Of a stretch of DNA of 64,000 bases, positions 2,416 through 64,000 are shown piece after piece. The translations under genes were made by a program, and so were the position numbers. The stretch comes from a virus: positions 64,001-128,000 of IMG/VR virus record IMGVR_UViG_3300005337_000001; one strand, given 5' to 3'. Below the pieces are notes generated by a model. It was not told the DNA's origin and searched no databases. It saw only the letters and a program-made list of their open reading frames with translations. Positions within the stretch are counted from its first letter, which is position 1. Each line of letters opens with the position of its first letter.

Positions 2416-3119
2416 CCCAAGATCTTACCCGGCTGGGTCTTGGTTTGCGACGGTTTTGATGAAGCGGTGCCGTTCATCCCGAACTTCGCAGCCACTTCTT
2501 GAACGTTTCGGTAGCTGAACCGATGAATCGGGCAGGGCCCCCACCGCTGTAGGCCCGCCATGTGCTGGTCGGTGCCGTAGCCCACGTTGGTGTGGAAGCC
2601 GTAGTTTTTGTACTCATCGGCTGCCAAGATCATGAGCTCGTCGCGGTCGGCCTTTGCCAGGATGCTCGCTGCGCTCACGGCTTTCACCAGGTTGTCGGCC
2701 TTGGGCATGCAGATGACGTTCTGCACGTCGGACGGCAATGAGCTGCCGTCCATGACTGCCAAAGCGTCTGGGTAGAGCACACGGCAAGCTTCAATCGTTT
2801 TACGAACAAGGTCGTCGCGCGCGCGGATCACCCCTATGTAATCGATGACCATGCTGCTGTGGTTCATGATGACGTGGAACGGAACCGCCGGCGGCAAGAG
2901 CACCTCTTTCACCAGACGTACGTGCTGCGGACGCTCGAGCTTCTTCGAGTCCATCACCTGCGGGTGGTTCCAATCTGCGTAGGCCACGGCCGCACACACA
3001 GTCACAGGACCTGCGATGCAGCCGTAACCCACTTCGTCGACGCCGATGATGAGCTGGTGCCCACGCTTTCGAATCTCAGCAAGCCCTCGCTCTTGTAGCT
3101 GCCGCGTTGTTGGTTGCAT
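2361..3119 (-). CDS. rnhB: Ribonuclease HII
   Basis: IIGVDEVGYGCIAGP, DSKKL, MDG, KAD, VSAASILAK, GYGT, PIHRFSY motifs. Confidence 0.9.
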   Translation of the reverse strand: MQPTTRQLQERGLAEIRKRGHQLIIGVDEVGYGCIAGPVTVCAAVAYADWNHPQVMDSKKLERPQHVRLVKEVLLPPAVPFHVIMNHSSMVIDYIGVIRARDDLVRKTIEACRVLYPDALAVMDGSSLPSDVQNVICMPKADNLVKAVSAASILAKADRDELMILAADEYKNYGFHTNVGYGTDQHMAGLQRWGPCPIHRFSYRNVQEVAAKFGMNGTASSKPSQTKTQPGKILGWRQPPRGMRVSTSSRKL

Positions 3120-3136
3120 GAGCCTCCAGCTCGTCT

Positions 3137-4162
3137 CTACTCTTTCTTCTTAACCACGGGTACGTACTTTGCAGCCTCGTTGGCGAAGTACTGCGCCGTC
3201 TTGGCCTTGCTCAAGTCGAGCTCGAATGCTTCCGGCTCCCAGCTGACAGCTGGGTCGAAGGCCGCCAACAAGTCTTCCCATTCACGCTTGGATAGACCGG
3301 CTTCCGTAGCTTCCGTCTCGAAGAGCTGTTGATTGCCTGAAACCAACCGAACAATACCCTCAGCTGGTGTGCACTTCGAGATGAAGTAGTTGTTCAGCAG
3401 CTTCATCTCCATGCGGCTGAACGTACGTGATTGGTACTTGTAGTCGACCCAGGCTTCGAAGGCCATTGGCGCCAGGATCTTGGCAATGGCGGCCTTGATG
3501 CGAGCCGTCTCTTGAATCTCCCACTGCGCGTGCTTGTCGACACGTAGCTTCAAGAAGTCGAGGCAGTTCTTCAGGTCGATCTTCCAGTACCACTCGGTGT
3601 AAAGCGAGAGCGGCAGGTGCATGCGCGCCAGCTCACGCGCTAGGTCCACTTCTTCCGCAATCATTGCCTCATACAGCTCAGCGGACTCACGCTGCAGACG
3701 CCGCGTGTTCAAGTCGAACACCTTCTGCGCCATCGCGCTGATGGGCTCGCCACGCCCCTGCTTGTTCTTCTTGCTCTGCGATCCCAGGTTCTCGGGCAGC
3801 GGGTTGTAGAACTGCATCGGTGCCAACGAGTACCTCATTGAGTACTCGTTCACGCTGGCGGTCCGGTGACGAATTAGCTGCCGCGCTACGAATATGGGTA
3901 GCTTCACGTGGAACTTCAGCTCCACCATCTCAAAAGGCGTGGTGTGGTTGTGGCGCATGAGGTAGCGCAGCACGCCCCGCGTCTCGCTGATCTTGCGCGT
4001 GCCGGCGCCATAGCTCACGCGCGCGGCCTGCTCGATGGCAAGGTCGTCGCCCATCGAATCCACCAAGGCAACGAAGCCGTGATCAAGCACGGGGAAATAC
4101 ATCCCCTTCAAACGGTCACGCAGCGGCAGCTGCTCTTCCATAGCTTCATTTAGGTCCGACAT
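3137..4162 (-). CDS. thyX: Flavin-dependent thymidylate synthase
   Basis: HTTPFE, PIFVARQLIRHRTASVNEYSMRY (RHRx7S), ELARMHLP, HAQWEI. Confidence 0.95.
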   Translation of the reverse strand: MSDLNEAMEEQLPLRDRLKGMYFPVLDHGFVALVDSMGDDLAIEQAARVSYGAGTRKISETRGVLRYLMRHNHTTPFEMVELKFHVKLPIFVARQLIRHRTASVNEYSMRYSLAPMQFYNPLPENLGSQSKKNKQGRGEPISAMAQKVFDLNTRRLQRESAELYEAMIAEEVDLARELARMHLPLSLYTEWYWKIDLKNCLDFLKLRVDKHAQWEIQETARIKAAIAKILAPMAFEAWVDYKYQSRTFSRMEMKLLNNYFISKCTPAEGIVRLVSGNQQLFETEATEAGLSKREWEDLLAAFDPAVSWEPEAFELDLSKAKTAQYFANEAAKYVPVVKKKE

Positions 4163-4514
4163 AGTCTTCGTTCTCCACTGGGTTGCCTGTGAAATAGATC
4201 TCGGTTGTGTTCCACTGCGATTCGAGAGAGCGCCACACTATTACGTAGCGCACCTTACCGTCGGGTCCGGGTGTGCCCTTCTCCGATACCATGACGAGCT
4301 TGCCTTCTTTTCTAGCTGGAGAGTGGGCCTGCTCGTCGCTGAGCGCCTCTTCCATCTCTTCGAGCAAGGCGCACTCGAGCGGAGCTCGTTGGTACGCCTC
4401 AGGCGGAGAGCCGCAAGTGCGGTCAGGGGTTGGTGACGTCCGACCGCACATCCTGCACACGAAGAGCGTCTTGCCACTCGGTGAAGTGGCGTAGAGCTCA
4501 ATCCAACGGCTCAT
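4146..4514 (-). CDS. Hypothetical Zn-binding protein
   Basis: CRMC...C...C; coupled to neighbours. Confidence 0.55.
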   Translation of the reverse strand: MSRWIELYATSPSGKTLFVCRMCGRTSPTPDRTCGSPPEAYQRAPLECALLEEMEEALSDEQAHSPARKEGKLVMVSEKGTPGPDGKVRYVIVWRSLESQWNTTEIYFTGNPVENEDYVGPK

Positions 4515-4801
4515 GCGCCGGGTACGGGACCCGGCGCGGGGGCTTGCGTCGCTGTCATTTGAGCCATGACAGCGTCCGTGAACGCTTTGGACGCGCGCTC
4601 ACCGAGCAGCATGGGGTTGAACAGAACGACGTCGTAGAAGACGGCAACACGCGGGCCGGCAGGCTCATCATACTTACGCTTAAACTGGTCGATGCGATAA
4701 GCCTGCATGCCCTCATCGACGTGTGCGTTGAGCACGTCTTCGAGCTTCTCGGCTTCCACGCCGAGCAAGACCTTCCAAACCTTCTTCGTTTCTTCAGCCA
4801 T
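4511..4801 (-). CDS. Hypothetical protein
   Basis: 96 aa, SD-like GGAAG upstream, ATGA coupling. Confidence 0.6.
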   Translation of the reverse strand: MAEETKKVWKVLLGVEAEKLEDVLNAHVDEGMQAYRIDQFKRKYDEPAGPRVAVFYDVVLFNPMLLGERASKAFTDAVMAQMTATQAPAPGPVPGA

Positions 4802-6057: not shown

Positions 6058-6819
6058 TCACATGTGTTTCTTGATTTTGGCTGCGATGGACGTCTTGAGC
6101 CGAGAGATCTTCGGCTGCGAATGTCCCAGCTGCGTAGCGAGTGTCGTCGTATCGGTGATGCGCTTCACCCCGTTGCCGTAAATGTGGTTGAACACCTGCG
6201 CCTCGTCGGGCGTCAGGTAGTCGTGTGGCGTGCGCTGCATGAGTCGGATGACGTCCGCCTCACGTGAAGTACCGAAGGCGCCTGGGTCCGTCTCGAACTT
6301 GCTGGACGGCACGTCGTTGCGCATCGCCTTCATCAAGCTCGTGACCTTGGCCGTAGGCATGTCCAGGCGCTCGCCGAGCTCGGCGTGCGTCGGGGCGCGC
6401 CCGAACTCCTCGGTCAGCTGGTTCTGCGCCTGCTGCAGCGGGCCAATGTTCTTGGCTTGTCCCTCGGGGATGTAGCCAACGTTCTGGTGCTTGGCGTTGA
6501 ATCGCTTGGCCTTTTGGATGCGGTTCTGCACGTGCGTGTTGAAAGCCACGCCGCGCTCGGGGTCGAATGTCTGCGCTGCACCGATAAAATGCTTCGTGAG
6601 CTCGGCCTTGAACGCAGCCGGTGCCACCGCCGGCGCGCGCCACTCCCGCTCCTTGCGGTTGATGAGCGGCTGATAGCGCTGCATCAATGGTTGCAGCAGC
6701 TCCGGCGTACGCCCGCCCTGATCCCAGGCATGCCAAAGCCGGAGGTCGCCTTCTGCCTTGTCGGCGGCAACCTTCGTCTTCAAGCTGAGGAAATCCTCAG
6801 CTGGATTCGTCTTGGGCAC
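6058..6819 (-). CDS. RNA polymerase sigma factor (group 3, FliA/WhiG/SigF-like)
   Basis: Region 2 FDPERGVAFNTHVQNRI; region 3 LTEEFGRAPTHAELGERLDM; region 4 HTH LATQLGHSQPKISRL. Confidence 0.9.
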   Translation of the reverse strand: MPKTNPAEDFLSLKTKVAADKAEGDLRLWHAWDQGGRTPELLQPLMQRYQPLINRKEREWRAPAVAPAAFKAELTKHFIGAAQTFDPERGVAFNTHVQNRIQKAKRFNAKHQNVGYIPEGQAKNIGPLQQAQNQLTEEFGRAPTHAELGERLDMPTAKVTSLMKAMRNDVPSSKFETDPGAFGTSREADVIRLMQRTPHDYLTPDEAQVFNHIYGNGVKRITDTTTLATQLGHSQPKISRLKTSIAAKIKKHM

Positions 6820-6824
6820 GGCGT

Positions 6825-7301
6825 TCAGAAGCGACCAGTGGCGCGACGCACGCGGTCGGCCAGCGTCGGGGCTGGGGCAGCTGCTTCCTTGGCTTTGCCT
6901 AGAAGCAGAGCGGAGTGAGTAGTGAAGCGCCCGGTCTTGGCGTGGTCGAAGAGCGCGTTCACAGCAGCGCCGTCTTGCCGCTCGGCGGCTGGCATCTTGG
7001 CGAACGCCTTGCCCAGCGCTCCCGTGCGATCCTTCTGGCTCTCGGCGTAGGTGGCATCGTTGTGGTGGTTGAGCTCACCCTTGGTCTCCACGCCCCAGCG
7101 CGAGTCTAGGTTCTGACCATCCTTGCGGTCCGGTGGGTCAGCGTACAAGTCCACTGCCGGTTTCTTCGGCGTGGCCTCGTTGTCATCCGGCTTGATACCA
7201 CCCTCCGCTTCTTTTTGAAGCCAAGCACCAAGCTCGCTCTGGTGAGCGGGACGGTAGTTGGCAGCCAAAATCTCGATGGGCTTATCGTCGGTTAGGGCCA
7301 T
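6825..7301 (-). CDS. Hypothetical protein, possible head-associated (K-x-A motifs)
   Basis: 158 aa; GAGGA SD; WLQKEAE motif; TATCAT at 7318-7323. Confidence 0.55.
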   Translation of the reverse strand: MALTDDKPIEILAANYRPAHQSELGAWLQKEAEGGIKPDDNEATPKKPAVDLYADPPDRKDGQNLDSRWGVETKGELNHHNDATYAESQKDRTGALGKAFAKMPAAERQDGAAVNALFDHAKTGRFTTHSALLLGKAKEAAAPAPTLADRVRRATGRF

Positions 7302-7339
7302 TGATTCCTCACTGTGAATGATACACCACCTTTTCGTAG

Positions 7340-7750
7340 TTACCCACCTGCCTTGCGCCTACGCTTATACTGCTCACGTTCGAGCGCATTATCTTCGAGG
7401 TCGTCTTCGATACTTTGTAGTAGCCCACGAAGCCGCGCGTTCTCTGTTTCTTTCTCGGCGTTGAGTGCTTCCAGCTGGGTGCAGCGGCGCTGCGCCTGCT
7501 GGAGCGTCTCCATGGTCCTGTCGAGCTCGGCGCCGATGGCGTCCACTATTTCCTCGGCGAGCTCCCCGAAGATCTTGAAGCCGTCGAGCTTCTTGACCGC
7601 TTCATCCCACATGCGTGGGTCGGTGAACTCGCAGCGCAGCTTGATGATGCCGTGCTGCGTACCAGCGACTGTTTTACCAGCCTTGGTGGCGTCTTCCACC
7701 CGCAGCTGCAGGCCCGGCATTTCCTTCTTTACGTCGGCAGTGGTTCCCAT
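7340..7750 (-). CDS. Hypothetical coiled-coil protein
   Basis: 136 aa, heptad-rich C-terminus. Confidence 0.55.
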   Translation of the reverse strand: MGTTADVKKEMPGLQLRVEDATKAGKTVAGTQHGIIKLRCEFTDPRMWDEAVKKLDGFKIFGELAEEIVDAIGAELDRTMETLQQAQRRCTQLEALNAEKETENARLRGLLQSIEDDLEDNALEREQYKRRRKAGG

Positions 7751-8319
7751 GCGCGTCGACCCATTCCTTCATTTTGTGCCAGCAGCTCCTCGGCGAAGCG
7801 CAGCATGTCTTCGATATGAAACTTCGAGACGTGCGCAGCAAGCGCCAATCGCTTGCCGACACGAGTCAAAGTCACCTCGGGATTTTTCAGAGACTGACGC
7901 AAGATGACGCACGCCTCACAGACCAGCTTGAAGAGCTCAGCGTTCTGATGATTTGTATCGTGCTTGATTTGCTCAACACCACGAGGACGTGACGCCAGGT
8001 AGTAGTACTCGGTCACCTCCGCCAGTAAGTCATCGCGCACCTCGTTGGCCTGCTCGAGCACATAGTTCAAGCCCTCGCGTGAGCGCTCCCAGGAAAGCCA
8101 CTTCAAAGTTTGCGGATCTTTCACGAAGCGCCACACCATGAGCTCGATGCTATAGAAAGCGCGTAGGTGCTGAACGCTACGAGAGCTGCCACCGTGAGCA
8201 GCACGCTCTCCCATCTCTTCAAGCGGCTCGAGCCACAGCTCGTTCTGCACCAACGTCAAATCGTAGAGGTTCCGCACGGTGTTGAGATACGCGCGCGTCA
8301 CCGGGCATGTAGTGTCCAT
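7729..8319 (-). CDS. Hypothetical helical protein
   Basis: 196 aa, GGAGGT SD, follows ATAAGA promoter motif. Confidence 0.55.
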   Translation of the reverse strand: MDTTCPVTRAYLNTVRNLYDLTLVQNELWLEPLEEMGERAAHGGSSRSVQHLRAFYSIELMVWRFVKDPQTLKWLSWERSREGLNYVLEQANEVRDDLLAEVTEYYYLASRPRGVEQIKHDTNHQNAELFKLVCEACVILRQSLKNPEVTLTRVGKRLALAAHVSKFHIEDMLRFAEELLAQNEGMGRRAWEPLPT

Positions 8320-8335
8320 GCATCACCTCCATGGG

Positions 8336-8364
8336 TCTTATCCCGGGGGTAGTGCAGGAGTTGC
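8336..8364 (-). promoter_or_regulatory. Class I promoter motif GCAACT-N17-ATAAGA
   Basis: Matches the motif at 22242, 22855, 23862 and 40259 with identical spacing; TAA is also the stop of the upstream gene. Confidence 0.6.
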
Positions 8365-9486
8365 CAGCGGTGCGACGTGGTCGATCATGCGCTCGAGCCC
8401 GCGCTTCATCCCGTGGTACGCAAGCGAGGCCCCAGGCACGGGGATCGCGTTGCTAGCCAGGGTGCCGATAGGGTCCTGCGCTACGAGCTTGGCGCCGCTG
8501 GTAGCTACGTTCTTGAGCTTGCCTTCCGGCAGCTTGCTCAAGCCCTTGTTCGCCACGTTCATCACGGGCTGCGTCACCTTCTTACCCCACCAGCTCTCGA
8601 CGCCGTGCTGCAAACCTGCAAGCTCTTGCGGAGAGCGCCGCTTCATCAGCAGCCGCGGCGTCTGCGGAATGTCGGTGGCACCTAGGCGCACAAGCCTTTC
8701 CAGAAGCGCCTCCTTGGCAAGGCCAGCGACCTTCATCCCGTGCCCGAGCGACTGCCCAAGCAGACCTGGTACCGCGGCCATCGGGATCTGCGAGGCGTAC
8801 GAACCGTAAGCGCGCAGCAGTTGCGACTTGGCGCGGGCCACCTGTTCTTCGGTAGCCCCGTTGTCGCGCATGTGTTGGATTGCTTTGTAACTGGCAACAA
8901 TCTCAGGGATGTTGCTGATAGCATTCACGAGCATGGGGGCTGCGATCGAGGCCATGCTCAGGGCCTTTCCTCCATGACCGGCGCCAGCGAACATCCCAGC
9001 TGCGACTCCACCGACATTGGCGAGGGATGAAGCGTCGTCGCCATGCCGTTGCAGCAGCCTACCGATGGTGCTCTTGTCGAAGTCGCCGTGCCCTATCTCG
9101 TGCGCCAGCACGCCGGGCACATTGGCCTTCGGGTTCATGATGATGCTCGTTTTGTCGGCGCTTGGTTTGAACCCGAACTCTTTCTCAACGGCCTCGAGCA
9201 CCTCAGGCGGCGCACCTGGCAGCAAAGCCGCGCCGTGCTCCATCTTCGGCGTCTTGTGCACCTTGTACTCGGAGTTATCGACGATACGCTCCGTAAGCAA
9301 GCGGTCGTCTTTGCTGCGTCGACTCTTGCTGATGTGCTTGTCCATCGAGTTGATGGCCATGCTGTTCAACCCCAAGCTTGCACCACCAACGCCGAGGCCG
9401 ACCAGCAGCTTCAGAACCTGCGCCTTGGTGTCCGCGGGCATCTCCGCCAACGTCGCGCGCATGGAGTTTAACGCGCGTGACTCCAT
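8338..9486 (-). CDS. Putative head-packaged zinc metallopeptidase (YugP/Zn_peptidase_2-like)
   Basis: GVLAHEIGHG (HExxH), hydrophobic Gly-rich segments, downstream PEIVASYKAIQHM third-ligand Glu. Confidence 0.7.
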   Translation of the reverse strand: MESRALNSMRATLAEMPADTKAQVLKLLVGLGVGGASLGLNSMAINSMDKHISKSRRSKDDRLLTERIVDNSEYKVHKTPKMEHGAALLPGAPPEVLEAVEKEFGFKPSADKTSIIMNPKANVPGVLAHEIGHGDFDKSTIGRLLQRHGDDASSLANVGGVAAGMFAGAGHGGKALSMASIAAPMLVNAISNIPEIVASYKAIQHMRDNGATEEQVARAKSQLLRAYGSYASQIPMAAVPGLLGQSLGHGMKVAGLAKEALLERLVRLGATDIPQTPRLLMKRRSPQELAGLQHGVESWWGKKVTQPVMNVANKGLSKLPEGKLKNVATSGAKLVAQDPIGTLASNAIPVPGASLAYHGMKRGLERMIDHVAPLATPALPPG

Positions 9487-10529: not shown

Positions 10530-11082
10530 TGGGACTCTCCTGCATGAACTTCCGCAGCGTACCCATCTCAGCGTGGCGGTCGCTGTGCGAGCGCAGCAGC
10601 GGCAGCGCGCCGCCGCCAATGGCGCCCTTCGCCGCAGCGGACACCAGGTTCAACGCCTTGGCTTTGGGCGTCGCCCCTTTGAGCGCGGTGCCGTGCTCAA
10701 TGGCGTTGCCGAGAGCACCAGCAGCGGCGCCGCCGAGCGCACCGATCCCGCCGTAGCGAGCGACCTGCCCCACGTTGGGCTTGTTCCGCTCGAGCGTGTC
10801 GAGCCGGTCGAGGCTGCGGCGCGCGGCGTCGGGGGAGACAGCGGCCGATTTCGCGAGCGCCAGAGCCTGGTCGGCCGTGACCGCGTTCAGGCGCAGGAGC
10901 TCGCGCGCGCAGGCGACCTTAACGGCCGGGTCGATTGCAGGCGCGCTGGACTTTTTCTTCTCCCACGGGAACGGCTCGTCGTGCGACGGCCGCTTGAACA
11001 TGAACATGTCGGCCAGCTTGCGCATCGACGTGCTGTACGCGCGCCCCAGCCCCTCCAGCTCATTCGGCTCGAGCAGATCCAT
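10522..11082 (-). CDS. Putative internal head/ejection protein
   Basis: K-x-A motifs; GGIGALGGAAAGALG Gly-zipper. Confidence 0.6.
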   Translation of the reverse strand: MDLLEPNELEGLGRAYSTSMRKLADMFMFKRPSHDEPFPWEKKKSSAPAIDPAVKVACARELLRLNAVTADQALALAKSAAVSPDAARRSLDRLDTLERNKPNVGQVARYGGIGALGGAAAGALGNAIEHGTALKGATPKAKALNLVSAAAKGAIGGGALPLLRSHSDRHAEMGTLRKFMQESPNA

Positions 11083-11858
11083 CAGTGGGCTCCCGCCGCC
11101 ATTGGGGGCGGCATCACGCTGTAGCCGGTGACGGGTTTGGCTACCGCCTTCGGTGCAAAGCCTGCAATGCGCCGTACCCTGTCAGCGACGTTGTGGGTGG
11201 CGTTGCCGACGACGTCGTGCGCCGCGTGCGCGGCGACGTGCCCGGCGCTGTGCAGGGCCTCGCCGACGGCAGGAGCCGCAGCAGAGGCGGCGCCCATGAC
11301 CTTGCCGCCGACGGCGCCGGCGAGCGACAGCGGCGCGTGCACGGCGCTGCCCAGGCCCGCGAGCCCAGCTACCTCGCCGGCCATCCCCATCGGCTTGGCA
11401 GCGCGCTGCAGGCCTTTACCGGCAGACTGCATAGCGCCGCCCAGGCCGCCGCCGACGTTGCCGCCGGCGCCGTGAAGCTCCTTACCCGCGCTGCGCGTCA
11501 GGCCCTCGGAGATACCACCGAGCGCGCCGCCGAGCGGGTTCATGAGGTTGCCGAGTGTGCTCTTGTGCGCGTAATGGTTACCAGCGGACTGCGCCACCTC
11601 ACTGGCGACGCGTGAGCCGATACCCGCCGGCGTGAACTTACCGACGCCAGTGAGCTTCTTGCTGCCGAGCATGGCTCCGCCGGCCATCAGGTCCTGGCCG
11701 AAGCGTTGGAACACGCCGGGCCCGCCCTTGAAGGGATTTGCGGCGCCGCCGGCTCCGAACAGCGCCACCTTCTCGAGCCCCGGCAACACACCGCCGTGCG
11801 CCGCTGCGATTTTCTGGAGCTCGTCGAGAAACGCTTGGTGAATGATCGATTCCATCAC
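11082..11858 (-). CDS. Putative internal head/ejection protein (Gly/Ala-rich)
   Basis: N-terminal FLDELQKIAA and LEKVAL. Confidence 0.6.
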   Translation of the reverse strand: MMESIIHQAFLDELQKIAAAHGGVLPGLEKVALFGAGGAANPFKGGPGVFQRFGQDLMAGGAMLGSKKLTGVGKFTPAGIGSRVASEVAQSAGNHYAHKSTLGNLMNPLGGALGGISEGLTRSAGKELHGAGGNVGGGLGGAMQSAGKGLQRAAKPMGMAGEVAGLAGLGSAVHAPLSLAGAVGGKVMGAASAAAPAVGEALHSAGHVAAHAAHDVVGNATHNVADRVRRIAGFAPKAVAKPVTGYSVMPPPMAAGAH

Positions 11859-12874
11859 AGCCTCGTTGTGGCCCCAGTACCAGACGACGCCTGTGCCCCG
11901 TTGGTGGGTAGTGTAGTGGCACTGCCGCGCCCGTCTTCAGTTTTCTCGGAGCCAACGGTACCAGGATTAGTGCCGTCCATCGAAGGTACATCACCGCGCT
12001 TGCCAGGCTCTGGTTGTGCGTCACGGTCCACATACGGAGAAATCAGCGACGCCGTCGCGAGCTTCGTATGCTTGCGCTTCTCCTCGAGTTTGCGTTTGAG
12101 CTCGTCGACGGTGATGGTCGAGATGGGCCCGAGCAGCTTCGGCCCCACCTTGTTGTAGTGGTCGAGGTAGGCCCCACGCGCATCGTCCTTCGAATCGAAG
12201 CCGAGCATGACCTTATCCTCGTCGTGGCCACGCCCGTCGAGGTTGCGCTGGTGCACGACGAAAGCATGCGGCGCGCTCTTGTTCGGGCCGACGTAGGCGT
12301 CGATCTCCTCGCCGTCTTTGCCCTCAGTGTTCTTGATGTAGCCGTACGGGTGCTTGAAAATTGTGCGCCACTTCTTGCCGTCTTTGTCGATGCCCTTACG
12401 CACCGAGCCTCGATCGTTCTCGATGGCGAGCGACAAGCCCTGGTGCACTACATGCCCGTGTAGCTTGTGCTCCGTCTTCAGAGCGCCGTGCTCTTTAGCC
12501 GCACCTTTGTACAGGTCGCCGAAGCCAAGTCGCTTGAGCTCATCGCCACCAATGCTGGTCACACCATTCATCGTGCGCGTGCCGCTCACAGTTCGCAGCG
12601 GCGCCTTCTTCGCAATGCGCGCAGCGCCCTGCAACCCCTGCTTGCCGGTGTTGACCACCCAATCCTTGGTGCCAGGGATAGGCGTCTTCAACAGATCCAT
12701 GAGGCCTGCGTGCTTCTTGAAGAGCGTGCCTTCTTTGTCCTTCTTGAGCAGTGTCGACACGCTTAGTGAACGACGCCCGCTGCGCGCCTTAGAGATGGAG
12801 AGCCTACCCTTGGAGGCTGCAATCTTTTGCAACTCATCCAAGAAACTCTCGAGGAGAGCGAGGTCTGTGGCCAT
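11855..12874 (-). CDS. Putative head-packaged protein with inorganic pyrophosphatase-like (InPase) domain
   Basis: N-terminal FLDELQKIAA; IENDRGSVRKG...HPYGYIKNTEGKDGEEIDAYVG...DEDKVMLGF. Confidence 0.75.
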   Translation of the reverse strand: MATDLALLESFLDELQKIAASKGRLSISKARSGRRSLSVSTLLKKDKEGTLFKKHAGLMDLLKTPIPGTKDWVVNTGKQGLQGAARIAKKAPLRTVSGTRTMNGVTSIGGDELKRLGFGDLYKGAAKEHGALKTEHKLHGHVVHQGLSLAIENDRGSVRKGIDKDGKKWRTIFKHPYGYIKNTEGKDGEEIDAYVGPNKSAPHAFVVHQRNLDGRGHDEDKVMLGFDSKDDARGAYLDHYNKVGPKLLGPISTITVDELKRKLEEKRKHTKLATASLISPYVDRDAQPEPGKRGDVPSMDGTNPGTVGSEKTEDGRGSATTLPTNGAQASSGTGATTRL

Positions 12875-13155
12875 TACGCAGCTACGGAGCCAAGGCCGGG
12901 TGCCGAGCGAGGCATGGAGAGCGTGGCACGGCTCTCTGCCGGGCCCTTCAAGAAGCCGCGCACGCTGTTGGCTATTTCAGCGGCACGTCCACGGTTGCCA
13001 GCAGCGGCGATGTTGCCGACCTGCTTGATGCCTGGCACCTGCGCAGGGTTCACGCCCTTGCGCGTTGCCAGCGAGGTAAGGAGCTGCCCGATGTCACGCC
13101 CTGCCGCGATCTTCGAGAGCTCATCCTGAAACGCACGGAACATCAGGTCGTCCAT
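12874..13155 (-). CDS. Small putative internal head protein
   Basis: MDDLMFRAFQDELSKIAAG. Confidence 0.6.
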   Translation of the reverse strand: MDDLMFRAFQDELSKIAAGRDIGQLLTSLATRKGVNPAQVPGIKQVGNIAAAGNRGRAAEIANSVRGFLKGPAESRATLSMPRSAPGLGSVAA

Positions 13156-13192
13156 GCCACTATTTGTACCATTACGGCACGGCTGAACGGAA

Positions 13193-16100
13193 TCAACCGA
13201 TGATTGCGCGGCCAATTCCTAGGCCTGCGAGGAAGTCCTTCACCGCATCCTGCTTCACCTTGCGGGTGTCACCCTTCTGCGCTGCGGTGGTTCCGCGCTT
13301 CAGCCCAACCACATCTTCGATCTCGGGGGTGACCAGACCGAAGAGGTTGTTGTACTGACCGAACGCGCGTGAGTGAAACCCTTCGATGCCCTGCACGACG
13401 AAGTTACCGTCGGGGCTTAGCTGCAGGTCGCGCGTGCCGAAGATGTCGACCATCGTGGCGATGGGCCGCCAGGTGTAGGCGCGGATGAACTCTTCGACGT
13501 CGAGCCCGGCGAGCTTGATGTGGCTGTACGTAGCCTGCAGAAACGCAGAAGCCTGCTCGATAGAAGCGCCGGCCAAAAGCTGATAGGCGACGGGCGCGTC
13601 CTTGCGCGCGTCGTTCGGATCGTCAGTCTCTGCAGCGGAGTTCAGCGCGTCCTGCGCTTGGTCGTTCGACCTGAAGACGTTGTGCGGGTCGGTGATAGCA
13701 CCGGTTGCGAAGAACAGATCGTAAGCCTCGCCAATCTTGGACGGGTGCCAGATGTCGCCGTACCAGCCTGGCCGGATGTACTCCTCGGCGGGCAGGTCCA
13801 CTACATCTTGCCTGAATCGTGGCACCTCTTCCTCGATGCGGAAGACACGGATGGTGACAAGGTGTGACTGCGCGTAGAAGTTGGTGGTCTTCCCCGTATA
13901 ACTAGGCTTGGTGGCCACACCAGTCTGGCGCGGCTGGTCCGGGGTGATTCCGAGCTCGGCGATGACGTTCTTGTCGAGCAGGCGCGCGTCGACTTCAATA
14001 CCCACCGGCACTCGAGCGCGCACACGCTGTGAAGCAGGGCGCGGCTTTTGTCCCGGTACAGAGTTGCTGAAGAGTAGGAGCGGCTTCGAGCTCGTCGAGT
14101 TCTCGATAGTCTTCGTCTCGCCGGCGGCGCGGTAAAGCTGGGTCACTTCCTGCACGCGCGTGATGCGACCAAGGTTTGGGCCGAGCGACTGCACCCGCGG
14201 CTGGTCAATAGAAGCCACATCGGTAGAGCGTGTCGCGTCGTCATCAAAGCGTTTGCTGACACTGACTTCGTCGATGTCCGTAGCGCCCAAGAACTCCACG
14301 CTCTCGTCAGGCTGGCGTGGGTAGCTGAGTACGACCTCGGTTGAACCGGACTGCTGGTTCACCGAGATCGTGACCTGCGTCGCATTACCGAGGAACGCGG
14401 TGCCTAGCAGCTTGTTGACGTCACGCGTCGGCTGTCCGATCTTCTGCAGCAGCTCGTTGTGCAGCGCCAGGATGTTGGCGTCGACGTACTTGTCGATAAC
14501 CAGCGTGGGGAAGCCGAGCGCTAGATACGGGTTGAACCGACCGCTCACCACCATCTGACGCGAGGCGAAGCGGTACTTGAAGTAGAGAAAGTTGGCCGAG
14601 CGCTGAGCCAAGCCCACCTGCGGGACACGGTCCTTCACCACACCGCCGCGTGCGGCGAAGATGTTGAGCTCGCCCATCTTCTCGAACACCGGCAAGATGC
14701 CCGTGAAAAGCTCGTGTTCGAGCAGGTCGTTGGTGAGTAGTGCCTGCAGGTTAACCTGGCTCTTCTTCAAGCTCTTGGTCTTCGGCGCAAAGTAGAAGCG
14801 GTCGAAGAGCTCATCCTCTCCAAAGAACTCGTCGTTGGTCTTGAGCAGCAAGCGCGTCGGCTCTTCCATGAAAGCGCGACGGTAGTTGAGCCTGTTGTAA
14901 TGCTCGGGGAAAATGACGTTGCAGCGCGGCGGCGCGCTGAACCACACGTCGGGACGCAGGATCTGTTGTACCAGCCGCGCCGGCGTGCGGTTCTTGCGTG
15001 AGTTCGTGACTACGCTGAGGTTCGCCACGCGTCGTAGCTTGTCGATGGCGTCGTCGATTGGGGTGATGCAAGCGGCAATGGACTTGTCGTTGTTAGGACT
15101 CCAGCGCGCCGTCAATGTAGCGGCCGTACCGATGCGCTGCTGCGCCGTGTTCAAGAGCGAGCTCGCCGACGGCACGGCTGGCTTCACCTTGCTCAGCTGC
15201 ATGATCGTGCTCTTCAAAAACGTCTGCTGCTTCTTGAGGCGGGTGATGATTTGATCGCGCAGGTTCTTCTGCACACTGGTGCTGTTGGCGAACAGTGCCA
15301 CATCACCACGGTTGGACGCCACATTCAGCTGCAGCTTGATGTCGGCGAGAGCATCGGCGACGCCTGTGGCGTTACGCACAATGAAGACCGTGTTCGGAGA
15401 CTGGTCGAGGCGCTTGCGCACTTGGCCGCTCACCGTTCCCTCGGTACCAGGAATGTACTTGGGGCACGGCTGGGCGTAGGTTTCGTGGAAGATGATGCCC
15501 TGCAGCGCCGTGATGCTCTGCCGAATCGAGGTCTGCCCGCCCATACCACCGAGCAGGCGGTTCAAGAGCCCGCCGTAGCCTTGCAGCGCGAGCAGCCGCG
15601 ACGCCGTCGGGTCGTCTTCTACCGCCACAATCATCTGGTTGATGTGCAGGCGGAGCTCGGCGAGCGTGAAGAAGATGTTCTGCCCGGCAATCTTCTTGTC
15701 GTAGTAGTAGCTGCCGCCAATCGACTCGAGCAGGTGAATGATGCCGCCGCCCAGGCCCTTCAGGTTGGGGAAGCTGATGCTCGGCGTACGCAGGACATTG
15801 GTGATGACCTCAGCCGAGCTCGACAAGAAGTCGGTGAAGAGGTTCGTCGAACCGCCGCTGAACAGCGCCTTGATGCCAGGGCCGAAGAGCCCAGTGTTGG
15901 TCCACTGGTAGGCGTAGTCCCAGTAGTTCGAAAGGTCAGCACACTGCAGCACCAGCGCGCGCTGGCTCGAGTCCTTGGTCCACTCGAACCCCAAGATCTC
16001 CCCCATGAAGAGAACCTTGTAGCGGGTGAGGTCCTCCTCCATGCTTTGCGTATCCCCGCCACTCTCGGTGTCAGTGGCGTTGCGTGTGTTGAGCACGTTC

Positions 16101-16366
16101 TGGTAGGCGGTCGGGTCACGCTGATCGGTGGCTGCAGTGCTTGCACGTTGAGCTGCCAGAAAGGGGCTCTCTTCCTCGTAGCCGTCGAGGAAGAAGACGT
16201 GCACCAACGTGCGCGGCAGCAAGCGCGTGCCTTCTGGCACGGGCGGTACTTGAATCGCGCCTAGCAGCGGGGCGTTCGGCAGGCCCTGGATTTGGATGCC
16301 GACGATGGGGACTTCAACCCCTTCAAGAAACATCCGAAGGCGAAGACGTTGGGCTCTGGCCGACAT
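13193..16366 (-). CDS. Putative baseplate hub / large tail protein
   Basis: 1057 aa downstream of tape measure; N-terminal RLRMFLEGVEVPIVGIQI beta pattern typical of hub proteins; assignment mostly by synteny. Confidence 0.55.
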   Translation of the reverse strand: MSARAQRLRLRMFLEGVEVPIVGIQIQGLPNAPLLGAIQVPPVPEGTRLLPRTLVHVFFLDGYEEESPFLAAQRASTAATDQRDPTAYQNVLNTRNATDTESGGDTQSMEEDLTRYKVLFMGEILGFEWTKDSSQRALVLQCADLSNYWDYAYQWTNTGLFGPGIKALFSGGSTNLFTDFLSSSAEVITNVLRTPSISFPNLKGLGGGIIHLLESIGGSYYYDKKIAGQNIFFTLAELRLHINQMIVAVEDDPTASRLLALQGYGGLLNRLLGGMGGQTSIRQSITALQGIIFHETYAQPCPKYIPGTEGTVSGQVRKRLDQSPNTVFIVRNATGVADALADIKLQLNVASNRGDVALFANSTSVQKNLRDQIITRLKKQQTFLKSTIMQLSKVKPAVPSASSLLNTAQQRIGTAATLTARWSPNNDKSIAACITPIDDAIDKLRRVANLSVVTNSRKNRTPARLVQQILRPDVWFSAPPRCNVIFPEHYNRLNYRRAFMEEPTRLLLKTNDEFFGEDELFDRFYFAPKTKSLKKSQVNLQALLTNDLLEHELFTGILPVFEKMGELNIFAARGGVVKDRVPQVGLAQRSANFLYFKYRFASRQMVVSGRFNPYLALGFPTLVIDKYVDANILALHNELLQKIGQPTRDVNKLLGTAFLGNATQVTISVNQQSGSTEVVLSYPRQPDESVEFLGATDIDEVSVSKRFDDDATRSTDVASIDQPRVQSLGPNLGRITRVQEVTQLYRAAGETKTIENSTSSKPLLLFSNSVPGQKPRPASQRVRARVPVGIEVDARLLDKNVIAELGITPDQPRQTGVATKPSYTGKTTNFYAQSHLVTIRVFRIEEEVPRFRQDVVDLPAEEYIRPGWYGDIWHPSKIGEAYDLFFATGAITDPHNVFRSNDQAQDALNSAAETDDPNDARKDAPVAYQLLAGASIEQASAFLQATYSHIKLAGLDVEEFIRAYTWRPIATMVDIFGTRDLQLSPDGNFVVQGIEGFHSRAFGQYNNLFGLVTPEIEDVVGLKRGTTAAQKGDTRKVKQDAVKDFLAGLGIGRAIIG

Positions 16367-22241: not shown

Positions 22242-22280
22242 GCAAAAAGCTCGGGGCATCGGAGATAAGAATGATGAAGG
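22242..22280 (+). promoter_or_regulatory. Class I promoter motif GCAAAA-N17-ATAAGA-N4-TGAAGG
   Basis: Intergenic, divergent from tape measure; exact spacing shared with four other sites. Confidence 0.65.
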
Positions 22281-23861: not shown

Positions 23862-23920
23862 GCAAAACACCTCCTTCGCACGGAATAAGAGAAGTGAAGG
23901 CACAGACGTGGGGTCTGTGC
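23862..23920 (+). promoter_or_regulatory. Class I promoter motif plus 5' hairpin
   Basis: GCAAAA-N17-ATAAGA-GAAG-TGAAGG; perfect hairpin GCACAGAC/GTCTGTGC 23900-23920; AAGGAGG SD. Confidence 0.65.
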
Positions 23921-39556: not shown

Positions 39557-40285
39557 ATGCCGAACACATTGACGGGGAGCAAGCGTCTTGAAGTAGCCGA
39601 CCTCATGAATTCGTCCGTCATCCTGTCGGAATACGACGAAGACAGCCAAAGGGAGTACTTCGGCAGCCTGGCGCACATGTACGTAGGGGCTAAGGTTGGA
39701 GACGAGAAGTTCAAAGAGATATGCCAAGGTCGCGCTGAAGCGCCGGCTGCCGCTGGTCACCTCTTCAGTACTTGCGGAGAGTGGGCGCAGTTCCTGCTCG
39801 AGCGCGCCGGCTACCGCGGGCCAATATTGAACCGTGATCTGTGGTACGCGGGGCAGAAAAGCCAAGCGTGGCAGGACGGTAAGAACATCGAGTACCTGTT
39901 CAGTCGTGCGCGCAAGGCCGGCGCATTCTCCGAGTACCTGTTGAGCAAACAAAAGAGCAAGCGACCGCAGTGCGGCGACATCTGCTACATCGCGGTTCAA
40001 GGCCAACCGTCGACGGAACACGTCTTCATGTTCGAAGGTAACGACCCGCTGGACGGTTCGACTTACGAACTGTGGACCAGCTTCGACGGTGGTCAAGGCG
40101 GCCTCACTACCCAGCACATCGCCGAGTGTCATCGAATGTTCAAGGACGGCATCCTGTACGGCGCCCACCAAGATGCGAACGGGCGCTGGTTGCCCGCAGG
40201 TGAAGGCAGGCCGCTCATCGGCTGGCTCAACATCGCGCTGCTCGAGTTCACAGCACCGGCAAACCTCATCGTGCCGTCGGCATAA
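39557..40285 (+). CDS. Putative CHAP/NlpC-P60-like cell-wall hydrolase
   Basis: STCGEWAQ (catalytic Cys), GDICYI, EHVFMF (His), SFDGGQG; GAGGAG SD. Confidence 0.55.
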   Translation: MPNTLTGSKRLEVADLMNSSVILSEYDEDSQREYFGSLAHMYVGAKVGDEKFKEICQGRAEAPAAAGHLFSTCGEWAQFLLERAGYRGPILNRDLWYAGQKSQAWQDGKNIEYLFSRARKAGAFSEYLLSKQKSKRPQCGDICYIAVQGQPSTEHVFMFEGNDPLDGSTYELWTSFDGGQGGLTTQHIAECHRMFKDGILYGAHQDANGRWLPAGEGRPLIGWLNIALLEFTAPANLIVPSA

Positions 40286-40287
40286 GA
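40259..40287 (+). promoter_or_regulatory. Class I promoter motif GCAAAC-N17-ATAAGA
   Basis: Same spacing; precedes the 40.4-44.1 kb cluster of small genes. Confidence 0.55.
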
Positions 40288-63354: not shown

Positions 63355-64000
63355 TTACGCCGAGGGCCAGGTCACCTGGAAGCCAGCGGCTTCGCAGATC
63401 TCCAACGCGCGCACGTGCAGACCAGTCTGCAGGTCCGGCGCCGACGCGATCTTCGTGCTCTCGCTGAGGCCGAGCACGTAGGCAGCGTTCACCTTGTTGT
63501 AGGCGATGTCCGGGCTCACGCCCGCTTCTTTGAGCAGCTCGATGGCGTGCCACGCCGCCTGCTCATCGAAGTTCGGCGTCGTGGTTCCCGACGCGGCTGC
63601 TGAAGCGGTCTTCGCCGTCTGGAACGCGGTAACGAGAGCGGAGATCTTGGCGGAGGCAGAAGCTTCCTTCTCCTCGCCTTCCTTCTTCTCCTTACCCTCT
63701 TTGCCGTCCTTGCCTTCGCCATCCTTCTTACCGAACGGAGGAGCCATGTCGCCCTTCTCGGCGATCTTGTTGAGCTCGGCAACGAACGAGTGCGCCATGA
63801 TGCGACCCATCGCGTCGGCTTCGGCGACCTTCTCGGCAGCGGCCCTCTTCTGGAGGAACTCGGACTCGGCAGCAGCCAGCTTCGCAGCGGCAGCTTCCTT
63901 CTCCTTTTCCTTCTCTTCTTTCTCCTTGCCCTCTTTGCCTTCAGGCTTCTTGCCTTCGCCTTCGCCGTCCTTCTTGCCGAAGTTCGGTGGGAACTCGGCC
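63355..64000 (-). CDS. Putative scaffold protein, partial (5' end beyond window)
   Basis: Frame open to window edge; EKVAEADAMGRIMAHSFVAELNKIAE; duplicated PPxFGKKDGEG charged block. Confidence 0.65.
   Translation of the reverse strand, partial: AEFPPNFGKKDGEGEGKKPEGKEGKEKEEKEKEKEAAAAKLAAAESEFLQKRAAAEKVAEADAMGRIMAHSFVAELNKIAEKGDMAPPFGKKDGEGKDGKEGKEKKEGEEKEASASAKISALVTAFQTAKTASAAASGTTTPNFDEQAAWHAIELLKEAGVSPDIAYNKVNAAYVLGLSESTKIASAPDLQTGLHVRALEICEAAGFQVTWPSA

Follow-up and report, generated by a model that had tools for sequence, protein, structure and literature searches.

A sigma-70-family factor in a polymerase-encoding phage carries a portable N-terminal leader shared with a head-module protein

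We analysed a window of 64,000 nucleotides, bases 64001-128000 of the complete 195,580-bp virus record IMGVR_UViG_3300005337_000001, which has direct terminal repeats. Here we describe a minus-strand gene of this window that encodes a genuine sigma-70-family factor with regions 2, 3 and 4. By sequence comparison, residues 1-18 of this sigma make up a portable leader that follows the scheme M-x-K-x-N-P-h-[DE]-[DE]-[FY]-L-x-x-K-(x-K)-x-A, and the same kind of leader heads a Gly/Ala-rich protein of 200 residues encoded in the head module. The phage also encodes its own RNA polymerase, and the gene is best explained as the promoter-specificity subunit of the phage's own transcription machinery. 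We tentatively favour the idea that the sigma is packaged into the particle, clipped and injected. A sheath-like protein is present in the genome, which suggests a contractile tail. Coordinates are collected in Table 1, where positions are those of the window unless given as genome positions.

A sequence-only reading of the window had named the protein a sigma factor, and Pfam, PHROGs, profile searches of the PDB and the predicted fold all agree with that identity. The protein matches Sigma70_r3 (PF04539) with 38.5 bits against a cut-off of 25.3, a region also matched by 39 of 40 homologues, and it matches phrog_351 in PHROGs. A profile of these 40 homologues aligns with SigA, RpoD and sigB holoenzyme chains over regions 2.2-4.2 (E=3e-14). 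In region 2, the alignment with SigA/RpoD regions 2.2-2.4 starts from profile position 73-78, also with E=3e-14, and the Pfam model of this region (PF04542) is matched weakly, by five of the 40 homologues at E<=5. For region 4, PF04545 is found in 31 of the 40 (best E=5.1e-8), and the PDB profile alignments reach position 250. In the AlphaFold2 (AF2) model, whose mean predicted local distance difference test score (pLDDT) is 82.8, residues 18-114 superimpose on the sigma-2 domains of RpoS and SigA with a root-mean-square deviation of 2.2-2.8 Å (Z about 10). VIA-align of the model gives the Staphylococcus aureus sigB holoenzyme chain 8x6g_H as the best match (Z=13.0, 208 residues aligned), and the best whole-chain matches are the same chain (profile positions 14-252 on chain residues 4-252), WhiG and FliA. 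The protein resembles group 3 sigma factors, with about 250 residues, sigma-2, sigma-3 and sigma-4 domains and no region 1.1. More than 80 homologues were collected, every one of them on a phage contig of about 170-200 kb. The GTG start is sound, because the homologues begin at the same place, with ATG.

The sigma begins MPKTNPAEDFLSLKTKVAA..., and the 200-residue protein, whose gene lies between the terminase and capsid genes, begins MAKNPVDEFLSEKRAFG (short form MAKNPVDEFLSEKRAF). When a matrix of the leaders of sigma homologues was run against the genome, the 200-residue protein was the best non-self match, at 12.0 bits. Its N-terminus is nearly unchanged among about 75 homologues, and 25 diverse family members all keep L10, K13 and A15. 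From this family we define the NP-leader as M-x-K-N-P-h-[DE]-[DE]-[FY]-L-x-x-K-x-A, and the sigma qualifies. The reverse comparison gives the same result: a matrix from 51 distinct N-termini of the 200-residue family scores 17.0 bits at residue 5 of the sigma, and a median of 10.1 bits across the sigma family, with at least 10 bits in 44 of 86 members, whereas the maximum over 264 other N-termini of the genome is 4.4 bits. At the DNA level, a degenerate pattern for N-P-x-[DE]-[DE]-[FY]-L finds the sigma gene and the 200-residue gene only, genome-wide, and its reversed control finds none. Almost all synonymous sites of the leader codons are different in the two genes; the conservation is therefore at the peptide level and reflects no recent gene conversion. 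One leader thus stands on two unrelated proteins, as in the capsid-targeting type of signal.

In more distant sigmas the leader is in perfect register with that of the 200-residue family, N-P-h-[DE]-[DE]-[FY]-h-x-x-K-x-A-A, and in the sigmas of the phage's close relatives it is two residues longer. We notice that in seven genomes where the two proteins could be paired, the third leader residue (A/V versus I/L) splits both into the same two groups, and the aromatic position (F versus Y or L) splits both alike. In many proteins of the wider sigma family, a conserved W-x-x-W follows only about 10 residues after the start, as it does in the sigmas of Salmonella phage Arash and Vibrio phage D69. 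Because these proteins begin without a leader, the leader is an add-on outside the sigma core, and a cut after K16-V-A18 would leave an N-terminus similar to theirs. The 200-residue protein has no family match in Pfam or PHROGs, and in the ESM Atlas it returns tape-measure-like rows only, with scores of 0.83-0.87, below the meaningful level. This protein has a conserved middle part and a glycine-zipper-like hydrophobic segment, at about residues 37-60, which is membrane-like.

The polymerase is a single-chain beta-beta' enzyme, with the beta and then the beta' domains in one frame and an intact NADFDGD at residues 1398-1404. Its gene is present in all ten related near-complete genomes that bear the sigma, or in 11 of 11 counting this phage: as one frame in G001-G007 (46-73% identity), and in G008-G010 as several pieces that share a single open frame. 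From this co-occurrence we infer that the sigma more likely serves the phage polymerase than that of the host. Redirection of the host RNA polymerase, the job first proposed for it, is less likely because the phage encodes its own beta-beta' polymerase. No second sigma was found in this genome, nor one resembling Arash gp196.

The sigma gene belongs to a block of genes for proteins of 196, 136 and 158 residues and the sigma, with small gaps between them, and a promoter-like GCAA-N19-ATAAGA site heads the block. The products of the 196- and 136-residue genes have no Pfam or PHROG match. ATAAGA is the most enriched hexamer upstream of genes. GCAA-N15-20-ATAAGA is matched four times in the window against 0.14 expected, and the genome holds 16 intergenic copies, some in divergent pairs, with the consensus GCAA-N13-tCGGGg-ATAAGA-N4-TG-AAGGAG. 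Further GCAA-N19-ATAAGA sites stand before small plus-strand genes at 22242-22270(+), 23862-23890(+) and 40259-40287(+). Since the ATAAGA site heads the block and no minus-strand terminator-like site lies between it (8336-8364) and the sigma gene, the sigma is downstream of the class that the sequence-only reading called early. In most relatives ATAAGN occurs 1.4-1.8 kb upstream of the sigma start, and in L005, L012, L020 and L070 a site of the ATAAGA class stands 21-24 nucleotides before it. On either strand, the class precedes many small genes of no assigned function; the capsid, sheath, portal, terminase and polymerase genes have no such site in front of them. An ATAAGA site upstream of the sigma fits positive feedback of the sigma on its own promoter, and it fits a purely intracellular sigma too. 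The earlier proposal that the gene sits specifically behind a late-type element is not upheld, since the ATAAGA site heads the operon here and in relatives. The TATCAT hexamer named as that element is present, in the 38-nucleotide gap before the 158-residue gene, and may be there by chance: TANNNT is too loose a pattern, with about 0.2 expected per such gap from base composition.

Genes around that of the sigma encode products with leaders of a second type, FLDELQKIA, and with domains of ejected proteins, and this block of virion and ejected-protein genes is conserved across the clade. The sigma leader, the leader of the 200-residue protein and the FLDELQKIA leaders all end in K-x-A, and the sigma contains a single K-x-A, at the leader end. 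Genome-wide, the observed to expected ratio of K-x-A is 1.2, and dipeptide control patterns give 0.9-1.13. K-x-A is enriched in a few head-region proteins (Table 1), in the context h-E-K-x-A-[SA]-A, and the same mark is seen in head-module proteins of Arash and D69. The pattern resembles what the code of a head protease would be expected to look like. K-I-A-E near the N-terminus of the capsid protein is kept in four relatives, with K-E-A-G in Arash; we set it aside as K-x-A evidence, since the whole N-terminus is conserved and it says little. Among the genes of leader-bearing proteins lies that of a 382-residue protein (8338-9486, minus strand) with a HEIGH motif and a sub-threshold match to Peptidase_M48 (E=0.0047), the only protease-like match nearby, which could be an ejected or a processing metalloprotease.

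The sequence-only reading had placed the sigma itself among the FLDELQKIA proteins. Translated in six frames, the window contains F[LQ]....K[IV]A no more than four times, in the sigma, 11082, 11855 and 12874 genes, always no further than about 30 residues from where a minus-strand open reading frame (ORF) starts. The sigma and the 11082 product are identical at F10, L11, K16, [I/V]17, A18 and A19, so that F-L-x4-K-V-A is present in the described register. As a motif member the sigma is poor. With a weight matrix from 31 non-redundant leader copies, collected from related phage loci, the three true copies score 34-41 bits, whereas the sigma reaches 1.5 bits, which places it at about rank 33 among 56,510 genome positions. 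The motif core D-E-[LM]-x-K-[IVL]-[AG] is near-invariant across a wide range of relatives; the sigma has S-L-K in place of D-E-L (the whole stretch being S-L-K-T-K-V-A), and the K of S-L-K is conserved in the sigma family, replacing the conserved L of the motif. The sigma was accordingly rejected as a bearer of this leader. Its homologues do keep a leader ending in K-x-A-A, and the earlier idea of an N-terminal leader on the sigma is upheld with a leader of another type that has better support. The two leader types may be distant kin, without this sigma being a member of the second, because N-termini of the sigma family exceed the null with the FLDELQKIA matrix (median -2.7 versus -14.6 for other N-termini) and a few homologues come close to the motif, such as EAFLDEKTKVAAER at 19 bits. 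The 63355 gene had also been listed as an N-terminal example; its FVAELNKIA lies at residue 142 of a 282-residue ORF. One of the true bearers, the 339-residue protein, matches PF18823 (E=4.6e-39) and PHROGs named minor head protein and DarB-like, and its InPase domain is typical of ejected polyvalent proteins. In the relative locus L003, an SNF2-type helicase and a DUF5661+InPase protein (6684-8507 and 2946-4784) both have FLDELQKIA-type N-terminal leaders, and the block from the 1057-residue protein to the sigma is a region of variable cargo.

Particle data come from Arash (OQ632216), a distant relative in culture, whose sigma Gp10 is homologous to the one described here (31-34% identity over 135-162 residues) and is encoded within a block annotated as structural (PMC10585845). 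The two phages also share the polymerase (33% identity), portal (32%), capsid protein (28%) and a homologous terminase. In the Arash particle preparation, the polymerase chain Gp206 is the most abundant protein with 128 unique peptides, the other chain, Gp216, has 40, and Gp10 has 24, with 467 spectra and 100% coverage, whereas most enzymes in the list have 2-11 (PMC10585845). The authors of that study proposed that the polymerase might act in early transcription (PMC10585845). Arash differs from this phage in several ways: its polymerase consists of two chains instead of one, it has a second sigma-like gene, gp196, its sigma is without the 18-residue leader, and its proteins are without N-terminal FLDELQKIA leaders.

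On this basis we propose the following mechanism. The sigma most likely directs the phage polymerase to GCAA-N19-ATAAGA promoters, one of which heads its own operon. Acting like the capsid targeting sequence of T4, the leader would direct the sigma to the inside of the prohead, and a head protease there would cut the leader off after K-x-A. Particles would carry the matured sigma alongside the polymerase, and injection of the sigma would start early transcription. The general idea of a packaged and injected sigma, put forward in the sequence-only reading, survives in this form through the portable leader, the block of virion genes and the detection of Gp10; its FLDELQKIA identity, its host polymerase target and its late element do not. 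We regard packaging, clipping and injection of the sigma as a tentative possibility. The fuller version, in which the pro-sigma and the single-chain polymerase are co-packaged and both injected, so that transcription from GCAA-N19-ATAAGA starts without a host transcription component, appears doubtful.

Several observations weigh against packaging and clipping. The one sign of cleavage is the enrichment of K-x-A, neither Pfam nor PHROGs recognised a prohead protease among about 25 head-region proteins, and the depletion of K-x-A in the polymerase, which might have marked it as a neighbour of such a protease, is not significant (8 versus 12.7 expected, p=0.11). The two leaders co-vary in a way that counts as roughly one evolutionary event, which is only suggestive. 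The operon stands under the ATAAGA class of small non-structural genes, which would suit an early or middle sigma outside the virion just as well. The homologous sigma detected in a virion preparation belongs to Arash, a phage with a leaderless sigma, and the D69 sigma is without a leader as well; the leader is therefore no general requirement for packaging, and Gp10, if truly packaged, enters without it. The Arash proteome comprises 116 of the 252 proteins, with ribonucleotide reductases, ligase and primase among them (PMC10585845), and with so many replication enzymes in it the preparation was not selective. Finally, the AF2 model shows residues 6-34 as one helix, continuous with the first sigma-2 helix and with pLDDT rising from 69 to 93, so the leader could be structural.

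Some of these points favour an explanation that we consider somewhat unlikely, in which the sigma is never packaged: made early or middle from the ATAAGA promoter, it would act in the cell with the phage polymerase or the host core, and the leader would have another role common to the 200-residue protein. It might be a pro-sequence that keeps the sigma inactive or tethered to the membrane until cleavage, a helix by which both proteins dock onto one partner, or a tag for degradation. The ATAAGA promoter at the head of the operon, its proximity to the sigma start in four relatives, its absence before the structural and polymerase genes and the unselective Arash list all agree with this explanation. 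So does the membrane-like segment of the 200-residue protein, and residues 1-115 of the model align with pro-sigma-K (8vjl_B) at Z=10.4, which helical proteins commonly reach. Against it, the gene sits in a clade-conserved block of virion and ejected-protein genes, and the leader is shared with a protein encoded in the head module between terminase and capsid and ends in a mark enriched in head-region proteins. The peptide count of Gp10, among the high ones in Arash, also speaks against it.

Other explanations concern the N-terminus itself. It might be sigma region 1.2 or an integral part of sigma-2, without any role in targeting or processing. Structural alignment puts model residues 18-21 on residues 109-112 of Escherichia coli sigma-70, and by that offset N-P-A-E-D-F-L (5-11) falls on residues 96-102, the start of region 1.2, which we take to be D-P-V-R-M-Y-L; the single helix of residues 6-34 agrees with this placement. 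We consider it improbable: the same peptide heads a family of proteins that are not sigma factors, many sigma-family members, including those of Arash and D69, are without it, and the structural alignments begin at residue 18-22, so that the register for residues 5-11 is extrapolated. Pfam Sigma70_r1_2 (PF00140) gave no match for residues 1-50 at E<=1, nor for the 40 homologues at E<=5. The scheme of the sequence-only reading, with a FLDELQKIA head-targeting motif on the sigma, late loading and redirection of host RNA polymerase to ATAAGA promoters, can point to the shared register and to the family scores given above, and it is very unlikely in view of the lost D-E-L, the phage's own polymerase in every genome checked and the ATAAGA site upstream of a merely putative late promoter. 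A hairpin at the 5' end of the sigma mRNA, serving for example translational control, is a highly improbable reason for the conservation of codons 6-13. These codons can fold into a 9-bp stem with a minimum free energy of -14.9 kcal/mol, compared with -6.5 on average among 300 synonymous recodings (z=-3.2), and the hairpin is kept with different arm sequences in L007, L010, L046 and L038, where the codons of residues 7 and 12 have changed together (A/S, V/N, A/G, L/E). It reaches the 5% level in only five of 30 relatives, however, with a mean z of -0.67, and it leaves the conserved K-x-K-x-A-A downstream unexplained. As the whole explanation the hairpin is ruled out, because the 200-residue gene keeps the peptide with other codons and without a local hairpin.

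Table 1. Positions of the sigma gene, its leader and related features in the window or in the whole genome
Feature	Position	Strand	Remarks
Sigma-70-family factor gene	6058..6819	-	253 residues, GTG start
Sigma N-terminal leader	6766..6819	-	codons 1-18, M-P-K-T-N-P-A-E-D-F-L-S-L-K-T-K-V-A, then A19; conserved in homologues
9-bp-stem hairpin	6783..6802	-	AGCTGAGGA-TT-TCCTCAGCT, sigma codons 6-13
158-residue protein gene	6825..7301	-	stop 5 nucleotides before sigma start; KEAA near C-terminus
TATCAT hexamer	7318..7323	-	in 38-nucleotide gap before 158-residue gene
136-residue protein gene of block	7340..7750	-	synteny in L001, L003, L004, L005
196-residue protein gene, first of block	7729..8319	-	synteny in L001, L003, L004, L005
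GCAA-N19-ATAAGA promoter-like site	8336..8364	-	16 nucleotides ahead of 196-residue gene
258-residue protein	11082..11858	-	true FLDELQKIAA leader, 40.7 bits
339-residue protein	11855..12874	-	FLDELQKIAA leader and InPase domain, 37.9 bits
Small protein	12874..13157	-	FQDELSKIAA leader, read from internal ATG, 34.0 bits
3' part of 282-residue head-module ORF	63355..64000	-	crosses window end; FVAELNKIA internal
282-residue protein	genome 127355 (window 63355)		K-x-A observed 13, expected 5.5, p=0.004
200-residue Gly/Ala-rich head-module protein	genome 129947-130549 (outside window; L033:6947-7549, P0237)	-	
441-residue protein	genome 130552		K-x-A observed 13, expected 3.3, p=5e-5
745-residue protein	genome 136149		K-x-A observed 15, expected 4.4, p=6e-5
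Single-chain beta-beta' RNA polymerase	genome 140307-146696 (outside window; L034:2308-8697)	-	2129 residues, Rpb2 and Rpb1 domains
446-residue protein	genome 155289		K-x-A observed 14, expected 3.1, p=4e-6

Two further genes lie on the strand of the sigma. The protein of 1057 residues (13193-16366, minus strand) has an N-terminus, RLRMFLEGVEVPI..., that by eye resembles NFRLYIEGIEVPF... of Arash Gp8, annotated as a structural cell-wall hydrolase; tblastn did not report the pair at E<=1e-3. Downstream of the sigma, a gene that is ThyX-like by sequence (3137-4162, minus strand) encodes a flavin-dependent thymidylate synthase, in place of which relatives carry a PF02511 or ThyA gene. Because this gene shares the strand, genes for virion proteins, transcription and nucleotide metabolism are mixed along the long minus-strand run.

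Three reviews divide large phages into those that encode a polymerase and have no sigma homologue, and those that encode a sigma, have no polymerase and rely on the host core. This clade has both and is outside that two-way division. T4 gp55, SPO1 gp28 and gp34 and the sigmas of jumbo phages without a polymerase are, like the protein described here, phage-encoded members or relatives of the sigma-70 family that set a phage promoter class. Those sigmas act on the host core and are not known to be virion components. Such host-redirecting sigmas differ from the present case, in which all related genomes checked encode a phage core. Together, the promoter class and the sigma would form a simple pair for a minimal bacterial-type system, with a core of one chain and without alpha or omega subunits.

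Among sigma factors of bacteria, pro-sigma-E and pro-sigma-K of Bacillus are made with a short pro-sequence at the N-terminus, and a dedicated protease takes it off to activate the sigma. Their pro-sequences have no sequence similarity to the leader, their proteases are membrane-bound enzymes of sporulation, and the fold match to pro-sigma-K (8vjl_B) covers the sigma-2 domain only. In jumbo phages of the phiKZ/AR9 type and in N4, a polymerase made late is packaged and injected to transcribe the early genes (PMC7598289, PMC13282480). Those virion polymerases work without a sigma-70 homologue, whereas here a bacterial-type single-chain core is accompanied by a sigma-70-family protein. Delivery of this sigma by the particle, if true, would be the first case of a virion-borne factor of the sigma-70 type.

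The closest parallel to the leader is found in T4, where unrelated internal proteins share a 10-residue N-terminal leader that directs them to the head before it is cleaved (PMC9026906). The T4 capsid targeting sequence of IPI-III (Mullaney and Black 1996) is, like the NP-leader, short, N-terminal and carried by otherwise unrelated proteins; it ends at a head-protease site and delivers cargo that is injected with the DNA (PMC9026906). The T4 leader has 10 residues and ends in L/I-x-E, while the leader described here has 15-18 residues and ends in K-x-A, and its candidate cargo is a sigma factor. As the targeting sequence does in T4, this leader of 15-18 residues may be able to load arbitrary proteins into the heads of these phages.

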